Origin: a virus
Lineage: Duplodnaviria; Heunggongvirae; Uroviricota; Caudoviricetes
Reading direction: 5' to 3' (one strand)
Length of the DNA: 39,821 nt
IMG/VR virus record: IMGVR_UViG_3300045988_152494
Coordinates: 1 to 39,821 of that record
Made by a program: the position numbers. Below, in pieces: positions 24,001 to 27,000 of this stretch (positions are counted from its first letter, which is position 1; every line of letters begins with the position of its first letter).

Positions 24001-27000
24001 CGCATGACACCCAGGAAGACCAGAAGCTGGTGCTGTGTTAATCCGGCCAGCATCACAGCTTCCAGCAACTCATTTGCAATGCGCGTATAACCATCATCGA
24101 GATCTGCCACGCGCGGCTCCTTTTGTGCCGCATCCGGCACTGGAAAATTGAATATCTCAGCAGTGTTTGCCATAATTCCTCCCGCAATGAGTGTGTTACG
24201 ATTTGCACCTGAAAGTCGGTTCTGTTCCAGCAGACCGGCTTTCGCCATTTCTGAACCTGTCATATTGCCCCCAGCATGGTGGTGACCATCGCCATCAGTG
24301 GACCAGCCAGATCTGGGTCCACACGAAACATCGACACAATACCTTCACTAATTTCCTTCAGTTTCTGGTGGCGTGGTGCGTTGAGAATGACAGCCTGTTT
24401 TGCCTCACTGAGTTCCTTTTCCATTTCAGCCAACCTAGCCATAAAGCTATCCTGCTCAACCAGGTAACCGCGATATTCCAGCGGTAGTACCGCCAGAATT
24501 GCCGGGGTCAGTTCACGCACGTTATTTCGGTATTTTTCAGAATCGAATTTGTTATCGAGGAAGCGGAACAGCTTCTGGCGTGCACGGCTGACATCATCAG
24601 GGAAATCGATGGTGCCGCCGCCCTGCTCCCGATACTCATTCACAATGAGTGCGGCAACAACATCCTGATTATCTGCAGCCGACCACGCGCGAACGGCATC
24701 ACGGATTTTTTCGTGGCCTGGCACCTGTTTTATTTGAGAACGATTTATCACCGCAGTCGGGCTAAATCCGCTAGTCTGTTGGTATGTAAGTGGTTGCATA
24801 GTCATTGCCTTATCAGTTAACGCCGCAGTTTAGGCGGCAGAATTACTCGCGTTAAACAATGGTGCAAGGTCGGGACGAATATCTGCTGGTTTAATCTTTC
24901 CACCAGTGGCTGAGACAATTTTCATTACATAGCGGGCATCAATTCCGCCACCGTGTAGCCAACGCCAAACAGTGGGCTGGGCTACACCGCATAGATCTGC
25001 CAGTCGTTTTTGACTACCTGTAATACTGATTGCGAGTTGAATGGTTTGATTTGTCATTATCAATTCCTATTGGTATTACAATGAATGGATAATAGCAATG
25101 CGTATTAATCCAATCAATAGCAAAACGTGTTTTGACCATCAATACGCAAGCGTATAAATTAAAACTTATGAAAAAAGAAACTCTTGCTGATCGCTTAAAC
25201 CTAGCGATGGAACAATCTGGAATGTCTCAAGGCGCTCTTGCAAAGGCGTCTGGCGTAGCTCAACCCACAATCTGGAGACTGACAAGCGGCAACGCACGCG
25301 GCTCAACAAAAATTGTTGAAATAGCTAATGCATTGGGTGTTCGAACAGAGTGGCTCTCATCAGGCATAGGCCCGATGAGAAATGACGGTCAACAATCAGG
25401 GAAGCCTGCTGTCAACCATTCCAAATACTTCAAAATTGACGTTCTTGATATAGAAGTCAGTGCTGGGCCGGGTGTCATCAACCGTGAGTTTGTAGAAGTC
25501 CTACGCTCGGTTGAGTACTCGTTTGACGATGCTCGTCACATGTTCGATGGCAGGAAGGCAGAAAATATCCGCATCATTAACGTACGCGGTGACAGCATGT
25601 CAGGAACGATCGAACCAGGTGATCTTCTGTTCGTTGATATCACTGTTAAATCTTTCGACGGTGATGGTATCTATGCGTTTCTGTACGACGACACAGCCCA
25701 TGTAAAGCGCCTGCAAATGATGAAGGATAAGCTGCTGGTTATCTCTGATAACAAGAGCTACTCACCGTGGGACCCGATCGAAAAAGACGAAATGAATCGG
25801 GTATTTATATTTGGGAAAGTTATTGGGAGCATGCCACAGACATATAGAAAACATGGGTAGATTATTAATGACAGATTTCATCAAGATAACCAGATGATGT
25901 TTTGGTGAGACATGCTGACATCCTCATAATTTATAGAATGGATGTTTCAAGCAGAGCTTAAGGTATATGGATATGTCAAAAAAAAATTTTGAATTCAAAA
26001 ATTACCCAATAGTCTTTATTGGCTCAGGCATTTCAAAAAGATATTTAGAGAACTACCCAACGTGGGAAGAGCTATTAAACGAGTATTGGAAAATAACAAA
26101 TCCCACAAATGATTTCTATAGTTATCTTTTAACAATAAAAGAATCACATAAAAATAACAGTGATAATGATATCGATCATAAGATTTATACAGAGGCAGCA
26201 AGTAAAATTGAAAATGATTACAATCTATTGTTTAGGACTGGCAAATTAAAATTAAATGGACTAGATGCCAAGAGGGTTTTTAGTGAAGATATTTCACCAT
26301 TTAAATACGCCATATGCCAAAGATTTTCTAATAACACAATCAGAAAGGATGTAAATCTTGATGAATTAGCATCATTTAAAACATTAATAAAAAAGGCCAA
26401 GATAATCATCACTACAAATTATGATGCTTTCATAGAAAATTTACTTCAAGAGCAAAATGTAACTCCAAAACTCTATATTGGAAATAATGGTTTTTTCGAA
26501 GATACTATTGGCTGGAGTGAGTTATACAAAATACATGGTGATATAAAGGATCCACACTCAATAATCATAAATAAAGATGATTACGAAAAATATGACAACA
26601 AATCTATACTCATTAGTGCCAAGATACTATCTAACATGATTAAAAATCCAATAGTTTTTCTTGGATATTCTTTAACTGACAGGAATGTAAAGAAACTTCT
26701 TTCTGATTTTTCCTCACAACTACCTAGAGAAGATGGTCGAAAATCAGCTGAAAGAATAATTTTGATTGAATATAAAGAGAATGAACAGGAAGTAGTACCA
26801 AAACAGATTACCGATCAACAGCTACAAATTACATATACATCTGTTAAAACAGATAACTATAAACAGATCTATGATGAGATCAGTGCTGTTGATGAAGGGC
26901 TCTCACCTTATGATGTTTTAAGGTATCAAAGAGCCATTAAAACACTTATCATTAATGAGGGTGAAAAAGGGCACTTAGATACTCTATTGGTTTCACCTTC

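Follow-up and report, generated by a model that had tools for sequence, protein, structure and literature searches.

The 39,821-nt stretch of the IMG/VR record IMGVR_UViG_3300045988_152494 (hereafter the window, to which all coordinates refer) carries two adjoining early genes on the minus strand whose products belong to the YdaS and YdaT families and probably act as the Cro and CII analogues of a lambda-like prophage. The first gene of the rightward early (PR) operon encodes a helix-turn-helix (HTH) protein of 75 amino acids (aa); the next encodes a protein of 181 or 179 aa and is followed by O- and P-like replication genes, and a CI-type repressor gene lies opposite the pair (Table 1). Gene order together with the Pfam and PHROG matches placed the pair in the cro and cII positions, upstream of O and P and divergent from a repressor with HTH_3 (28.3 bits) and Peptidase_S24 (67.2 bits) domains, as the original prediction had proposed from the sequence. 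Both open reading frames (ORFs) that it described were found on the minus strand in the ORF list, and the two segments that it quoted from the longer product, NEYREQGGGTIDF and LTPAILAVLPLEYRGYL, are present in the translation. Its family assignment was borne out by profile hidden Markov model searches. The 75-aa protein matched YdaS_toxin (PF15943; 54.6 bits, cut-off 30) and, weakly, P22_Cro, and fell into phrog_35 (transcriptional repressor). The 181-aa protein matched YdaT_toxin (PF06254; 103.4 bits, cut-off 21) and, over residues 19–181, phrog_163 (“CII-like transcriptional activator”; 6.8e-67).

The ORF of the Cro analogue extends over 24830..25063 and would encode 77 aa from a TTG start or 75 aa from the ATG at 25057 (MTNQTIQ...). 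For the longer ORF, the second ATG at 24799 (179 aa) is likely to be the start rather than the ATG at 24805 (181 aa), because the RefSeq gene is 540 nt long, the homologue consensus begins with MQSLTYQ and an AGG Shine-Dalgarno sequence lies ~8 nt away.

Table 1. Genes, promoters and candidate operators of the immunity region and the nin/Q entrance (window coordinates).
Feature	Position	Strand	Basis or remark
CI-type repressor, HTH_3 + Peptidase_S24, 230 aa	25168..25860	+	Pfam, PHROG
PRM-like promoter, TTGACC-17-TAAATT	25132->25160	+	promoter scan; ends 8 nt before the cI ATG
Divergent promoter/operator region	25058..25167		promoter scan, repeats, palindrome
PR-like promoter, TTGATT-17-TATTAT	25117->25089	-	promoter scan
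Candidate operator TTGATAATGACAAATCAA (minus-strand reading)	25046..25063		fits TTGATW-N6-WATCAA exactly
Putative Cro analogue, YdaS-family HTH protein, 75 aa	24830..25057	-	Pfam, PHROG, ORF list
Putative CII analogue, YdaT family/phi80-CII type, 181 aa or 179 aa	24260..24805	-	Pfam, PHROG
Degenerate candidate box GTGATAAATCGTTCTCAA	24734..24751		+48 of the CII-like ORF, codons 17–22
O-like replication initiator gene	23244..24263	-	Pfam Phage_rep_O
Lambda P-like helicase loader	22546..23247	-	Pfam Phage_lambda_P, 208.8 bits
Promoter at the nin/Q entrance, TTGATT-17-CATAAT; candidate distal operator	20314..20342	-	promoter scan

The CI translation contains a GDSM serine motif, a VKRL lysine motif and a candidate Ala-Gly cleavage site (EVSAGPG), motifs by which it is classed as a LexA-like repressor of the autocleavable type. 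It is probably made from a leaderless mRNA. In the divergent promoter/operator region, ATACGC/CAATAGC-type half-sites are repeated and a perfect palindrome, ATACGCAAGCGTAT, occupies 25142–25155. The PR-like promoter, ~25 nt upstream of the start of the Cro analogue, overlaps operator-like repeats that are common to the promoter of the CI gene. Repeats of the CAATAGC type were also seen by eye at 27850–27900, in a putative OL/PL region. Further copies of ATACGCAAGCGTAT were sought to define OL, and none was found within 3 mismatches; we therefore regard the operator boundaries as tentative.

Relationship of the YdaT-family protein to phi80 CII

The longer protein had 891 homologues in Enterobacteriaceae, mostly of 179–180 aa. 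In tblastn searches against phages, it matched phi80 cII (67% identity), the cII genes of HK225 and HK639 (52%) and Rac-type YdaT (35%). The 35% identity with Rac YdaT extended over 96 aa, so that the protein is much closer to phi80 CII (NC_021190, 35671..36213), with which it aligned end to end across all 180 residues and shared an identical recognition helix, SRARQKLFRFLDN. In phi80, which also has an S24-type CI, cII likewise lies between the Cro analogue (gp30) and an O-like gene, and the same order, after a Cro-type HTH gene and before replication genes, was found in HK225, HK639 and CobraSix. The cII gene of phi80 was defined genetically, and phi80 CI is cleaved with RecA. The partners of the CII analogue are much less alike in the two phages, with 34% identity over 44 aa between the Cro analogue and gp30 and 23% identity between the CI proteins, and immunity specificity would therefore differ from that of phi80. 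By sequence comparison, a close CII next to a distant Cro and CI is the usual lambdoid mosaic. Two further differences are that the phi80 annotation includes an N gene and, after cII, an oop-like M3 RNA, neither of which was detected in the window, and that phi80 has no palindrome at the start of its Cro analogue, unlike the window.

An AlphaFold2 model computed with 39 homologues (pLDDT 80) predicted a disordered segment (residues 1–26) followed by eight helices that form a POU-like HTH domain and then a long helix, as in the PDB entries 8bt1 (YdaT of CP-933P) and 3c4r (its close homologue). These entries were the sole confident Foldseek matches in the PDB (probability 1.0; target-normalised TM 0.69–0.73), and the model superposed on CP-933P YdaT with an rmsd of 2.9–3.9 Å over ~120 residues. 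A sequence search of the PDB also returned these two entries alone, both as weak matches; CP-933P YdaT belongs to the same Pfam family but is just ~27% identical to the window protein. The recognition-helix arginine is conserved: R81 in QKLFRFLD aligns with the arginine of QKIFRWLD in 8bt1 (CP-933P Arg60) and of IYHRWL in Rac (R57), and it is invariant in the 39 homologues. The excess in length over Rac YdaT (140 aa) consists of the ~26 disordered N-terminal residues and ~15 C-terminal residues in extra helices, and the same 26-residue N-terminus and C-terminal helices are additions relative to CP-933P YdaT. The DNA encoding the N-terminal extension also carries an operator-like sequence of the YdaT family, described below.

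The protein showed no Pfam match to Phage_CII at E ≤ 0.01, and tblastn with lambda CII detected cII in control loci but not in loci with a YdaT-type gene. On these comparisons, it is only a functional analogue of lambda CII and not a member of its family. The two systems share their genetic positions and proposed logic, including a tetrameric factor; in lambda, CII binds within the 5' coding part of its own gene, and repressor is made from a leftward transcript that runs antisense to cro. Lambda CII, however, reads direct TTGC repeats, whereas YdaT tetramers with 222 symmetry read inverted repeats (PMC9986795).

A regulatory role for such pairs is established knowledge and not a new proposal. 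Casjens (2003), as cited in the letter of Jobling (2018; PMC5917428), named YdaS and YdaT as homologues of Cro and CII, and the letter itself argues against a toxin-antitoxin (TA) interpretation. Jurenas et al. (2021; PMC8630535) reported that CP-933P YdaT activates a PRE-like promoter, PRE933P, and is homologous to phi80 CII. Since these three sources already contain the argument, including the link between YdaT and phi80 CII, the reading itself was known. The structure of CP-933P YdaT revealed a 222-symmetric tetramer that binds TTGATT-N6-AATCAA (Prolic-Kalinsek et al.; PMC9986795), and entry 8bt1 was deposited as a “CII functional analog”. For Rac, Wons et al. (PMC11879457) described a YdaT box, ATGATTCATGAAAATCAA, that overlies the ydaT start and activates a reverse promoter in ydaS 29-fold, as well as a second YdaT footprint around the ydaS start; they also reported that Rac and CP-933P YdaT cross-recognise their boxes at 30% identity.

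Each of these relatives differs from the window in other respects. Rac has the same two families in the same order opposite its repressor (35% identity for YdaT, 32% for YdaS), but according to published descriptions RacR lacks an S24 protease domain, unlike the CI of the window. CP-933P has PaaR2, also without an S24 domain, together with a ParE2 toxin-antitoxin operon, and the end of ydaS is where its strong operator is located (PMC9986795).

The 1.8-kb module is widespread. It was 95%–98% identical in the immunity regions of 16 sequenced coliphage records, including 4A7, Lambda_4C10, D2, 1W, 3W, Perceval and the PhiR series, most of which name the three genes cI, cro (or “repressor”) and cII; carriers with these labels include plaque-forming or inducible phages in which the module is 97% identical (e.g., 4A7, D2, Perceval and PhiR68_2). 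Matches to the module occurred in 2304 of 5426 complete E. coli genomes (~40%), with ≥ 80% of the module present in 717, and in the best-matching genome a complete lambda-like prophage surrounds it. RefSeq names the longer product “toxin YdaT domain-containing protein”.

These findings suggested, with a probability that we put at about 0.85, that the window contains the immunity switch of a lambda-like prophage that is very common in E. coli, with members of the YdaS and YdaT (phi80-CII) families serving as Cro and CII under misleading toxin names. The role of CII-like lysogeny regulator that the original prediction had assigned to the longer protein is thus supported by the identity with phi80 CII, the PHROG match, the predicted fold and the published work on homologues. 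The practical consequence is an annotation correction, as thousands of E. coli genomes carry the labels “toxin YdaT” and “helix-turn-helix protein” for genes that would be CII and Cro equivalents. Beyond this, our results add a concrete map of candidate binding sites around the cro analogue, with the geometry known from Rac, and at the nin/Q promoter.

Candidate operators and the proposed lysogeny switch

The window was scanned for the published YdaT operator TTGATT-N6-AATCAA with mismatches counted, and chance occurrence was estimated from expectation and from 300 simulations. One perfect match was found at 20325–20342 (0.003–0.007 expected per window), together with one-mismatch matches at 25046–25063 and 33408–33425. 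The three sites with at most one mismatch compare with an expectation of 0.1–0.25 and were not reached in any of the 300 simulations.

The site at 25046–25063 covers the start region of the cro analogue, from its Shine-Dalgarno sequence up to codon 4, and its counterpart in the phage 4A7 group has one mismatch to TTGATW-N6-WATCAA. The degenerate box within the CII-like ORF is, from its sequence and position, a candidate site tied to a PRE-type promoter. The 11 related phages examined all had their best-matching site between +30 and +70 at exactly +48, and the left arm NTGATW was kept in all 11 despite the varying peptide. The box has one mismatch in mEp237, two in the window and in two Klebsiella phages, and three in phi80, CobraSix, HK225, HK639 and PHB10; BHUENT6, with a cII-like protein just 27% identical, has a perfect box. 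BHUENT6 is an unannotated record (locus L006, ~15550–16150) whose divergent YdaT-like protein reached 16.2 bits in Pfam, short of the cut-off of 21, and was missed by the phage-wide tblastn; its +48 site is the perfect palindrome TTGATTTCGATTTATCAA. No box was found at the cro/cII junction of the window.

The two candidate boxes thus lie at −6 and +306 from the ATG of the cro analogue, ~310 bp apart. In Rac, the YdaT box lies at +312 from the ydaS ATG and the second footprint surrounds that ATG, so that two YdaT-binding regions ~310 bp apart flank the cro analogue as the candidates do in the window. By this comparison, a two-site architecture appears to be conserved, although the Rac box overlaps the start codon of ydaT itself and the box in the window falls at codons 17–22. 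In Rac-like phages, the interval between ydaC and ydaQ(xis)-intR contains another near-perfect box, TTGATTATTAATAATCAG, at positions 2326–2343 of locus L099 (Rac-SA53) and 9252–9269 of locus L100 (vB_EcoS-683R6), which is where a CII-dependent PI-type integrase promoter would be expected. No similar box was seen upstream of xis/int in the window.

By analogy with its homologues, the switch is likely to operate as follows. After infection, transcription from PR would yield the Cro analogue and then the CII analogue, which, judging from CP-933P and Rac YdaT and from the annotation of phi80 CII, would assemble into a tetramer through its long helix and bind DNA through its POU-like HTH domain. 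Binding to TTGATW-N6-WATCAA palindromes, namely the +48 box and the box at the cro start, would activate leftward transcription through the cro analogue into cI and so lead to lysogeny. CI would then repress PR and PL until its SOS-induced, RecA-stimulated self-cleavage.

Several points weigh against this interpretation. The identity to experimentally studied YdaT proteins is just 27%–35%, and residues of the recognition helix differ (FRF here, FRW in CP-933P, HRW in Rac). The CII function is known from homologues, and for this exact protein it is predicted from sequence and a structural model. The +48 site lies within coding sequence, and part of its conservation may therefore be protein-driven. 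The promoter scan found no sigma-70-like leftward promoter inside the cro analogue at ≥ 9/12 matches, which is expected if the promoter depends on an activator. Finally, N and CIII of lambda, and N and the M3/oop RNA of phi80, had no credible matches when sought in the window, so that neither a lambda-style control of CII stability through FtsH and CIII nor an oop layer can be assumed. Rfam searches, run at gathering thresholds for the whole window and at E ≤ 5 for the nin module, gave nothing credible.

The position of the best palindromes could be explained differently. The two best sites overlap the −35 element and spacer of a promoter (20325–20342) and a ribosome-binding site with its ATG (25046–25063), which are positions typical of repression. 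The protein might thus be mainly a repressor or roadblock at the nin/Q promoter and at cro translation or PR read-through rather than an activator, with lysogeny favoured through a delay of late genes. The CP-933P study terms YdaT a repressor (PMC9986795), and according to the Rac study YdaT bound in the intergenic region lowers racR expression (PMC11879457). However, the two homologues that have been studied each switch on a leftward promoter serving the repressor operon (PMC8630535, PMC11879457), the conserved position of the +48 site is that of the activating Rac box, and the two roles are not mutually exclusive. We consider a repressor-only role rather unlikely.

Considerably less probable is that the main selected role in lysogens concerns host genes (envelope stress, motility, division). 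Binding of Rac YdaT to the rcsA promoter, with remodelling of the RcsAB regulon, has been described (PMC11879457), and the frequency of the module in E. coli genomes would fit such a role; the gene, however, lies behind a CI-repressed PR-like promoter and would therefore be silent in a lysogen, and the module is present in sequenced coliphage genomes at the normal cII position. Both this explanation and the repressor-only role fit less of the evidence than regulation by Cro and CII analogues.

A type II toxin-antitoxin module, with YdaT as toxin and YdaS as antitoxin, is suggested by the Pfam names (“Bacterial toxin YdaS/YdaT”), by the RefSeq product name and by the toxicity of overexpressed Rac YdaT (PMC11879457), but it is very unlikely from context, fold and literature: the genes are embedded in the PR operon rather than self-contained, with the stop of the longer ORF overlapping the annotated start of O; the modelled “toxin” fold is a DNA-binding POU-like domain; in PADLOC, the YdaT-like protein was not matched and the HTH protein was matched only marginally (mad1, E 4.6e-4); Christensen-Dalsgaard (2010), as cited in PMC5917428, saw no TA behaviour; CP-933P YdaT was non-toxic and likewise without TA behaviour (PMC8630535); and overproduced lambda CII is toxic as well (PMC5917428).

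The palindrome at the nin/Q entrance

The perfect match at 20325–20342, in which the operator recognised by CP-933P YdaT is reproduced exactly, supplies both the −35 hexamer and the spacer of a promoter that Mahdi and colleagues annotated in the phage 82 record X92588. The genes downstream are orf33/ylcH, ybcN, ninE, ybcO, rusA, ylcG and Q. A palindrome of this type occurs at the same place in all eight phages with phi80-type cII, which span several lineages (82-like coliphages, phi80/HK225, CobraSix and HK639); in phi80 it takes the form TTGATA-N6-TATCAA upstream of ybcN. In mEp237 and one Klebsiella phage, a variant of the palindrome adjoins the downstream hairpin. Across 41 distinct module variants, the arms contained 1.1–1.8 bits per position, compared with 0.1–0.5 bits at most spacer positions and in the upstream flank, and at least 14 different spacers were present. 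Homology between phages in the nin region starts exactly at the left arm of the palindrome, and phages whose cII is of another type share the −10 element, hairpin and orf33 but have a different −35 region.

We also considered whether the palindrome is exclusive to phages with YdaT-type cII. This was rejected despite a distribution of 8/8 versus 0/4 in distant relatives. One supposed negative, BHUENT6, proved to have a divergent YdaT-like gene. Among 80 IMG/VR loci with near-identical ybcN, six had a lambda-type cII, and the box was kept in five of these six close relatives; conversely, Rac-like phages and BHUENT6 have YdaT-like genes but no box in the nin module, intact Rac-like phages having the box upstream of ydaQ-intR instead. 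These distributions count against an operator function at this site, as does the fact that the left arm TTGATT doubles as a reasonable −35 hexamer. On the sequence patterns, the chance that the nin palindrome is a genuine operator of the CII-like protein is about one half. The further proposal that phi80-type CII proteins have a distal target at the nin promoter, undescribed to date, through which they directly throttle transcription towards the late-gene antiterminator gene Q, is tentative, and we regard it as possible but less likely than operator function as such. Speculatively, binding there would most simply repress or block transcription towards Q, in functional parallel to the action of lambda CII at paQ. 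If so, it would be a protein-operator counterpart of the CII-paQ antisense control of lambda. Confirmation of the operator map would show that phi80-type phages, seemingly without cIII and oop, couple the lysogeny decision to late genes, and would point to regulatory cross-talk among co-resident prophages.

A perfect palindrome, TTGATTTTGGGAAATCAA, identical to that of phage 82, also lies upstream of ylcH-ybcN in the DLP12 prophage of E. coli K-12 (NC_000913.3, 572284–572301; 8285–8302 in locus L014). Because it matches the published YdaT operator and K-12 encodes Rac YdaT, regulation across prophages is possible; the main text of the 2025 Rac YdaT paper (PMC11879457) does not mention ylcH, ybcN or DLP12 as a target.

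Directly after the nin promoter, a hairpin (20282–20310, minus strand) carries a near-constant 9-nt loop, CCUGAACAA. Folding of the individual sequences revealed at least five different, mutually compensating stem sequences across phages, and RNAalifold recovered only 3 pairs on a MAFFT alignment, in which indels shift the stems against one another. The hairpin is followed by the 33-codon orf33/ylcH (20157–20258), which contains an intrinsic-terminator-like site (20201–20218). Judging from this arrangement, the hairpin, orf33 and the terminator could be a ~110-nt RNA or attenuator instead of a protein gene; no Rfam family matched the hairpin/orf33 region. Upstream of the palindrome, from 20343 on, lies a variable cargo slot. 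In the window, it holds on the minus strand a 181-aa predicted membrane protein without Pfam or PADLOC match (20352–20897) and a 164-aa protein whose match to VasI is marginal (21735–22229), and in relatives the same slot holds emrE, a recombinase or an esterase.

Neighbouring genes and the prophage end

The O-like ORF has a 30-codon N-terminal extension (24173–24263) that overlaps the end of the CII-like gene. Its alignment to phrog_277 starts at residue 31, DNA at 24157–24184 shows weak similarity to the start of phi80 gene 15, and the true start is probably Met31 at 24173. In phi80 and HK639, an oop-like M3 RNA occupies the gap that corresponds to this extension, and neither a terminator nor an M3-like sequence was found in the cII/O gap of the window.

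The 33408–33425 palindrome, considered as a PI-type site, was rejected, as it lies past a tRNA-Thr fragment at the apparent prophage end and before a second integrase gene. It is probably a chance occurrence, since one extra one-mismatch site is within expectation. Beyond the prophage integrase gene (32177–33340), the sequence at 33354–33402 resembles the 3' part of a tRNA-Thr gene, which we take to be thrW; ARAGORN found no complete tRNA there. A second tyrosine integrase (33462–34565; Pfam) follows directly, and this arrangement suggests that two elements integrated in tandem at one tRNA site.

Directly downstream of cI, in the position of lambda rexAB, a 535-aa SIR2_2-domain protein is encoded on the plus strand (25967–27574), upstream of a PL-like promoter (TTGACT-17-TATTGT, 27856–27884). 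Its full length matched PDC-S25, a candidate defence family of PADLOC (1.2e-235), and it also matched phrog_2695. Relatives hold other genes at this spot, such as one for an ASCH-domain protein in 4A7.

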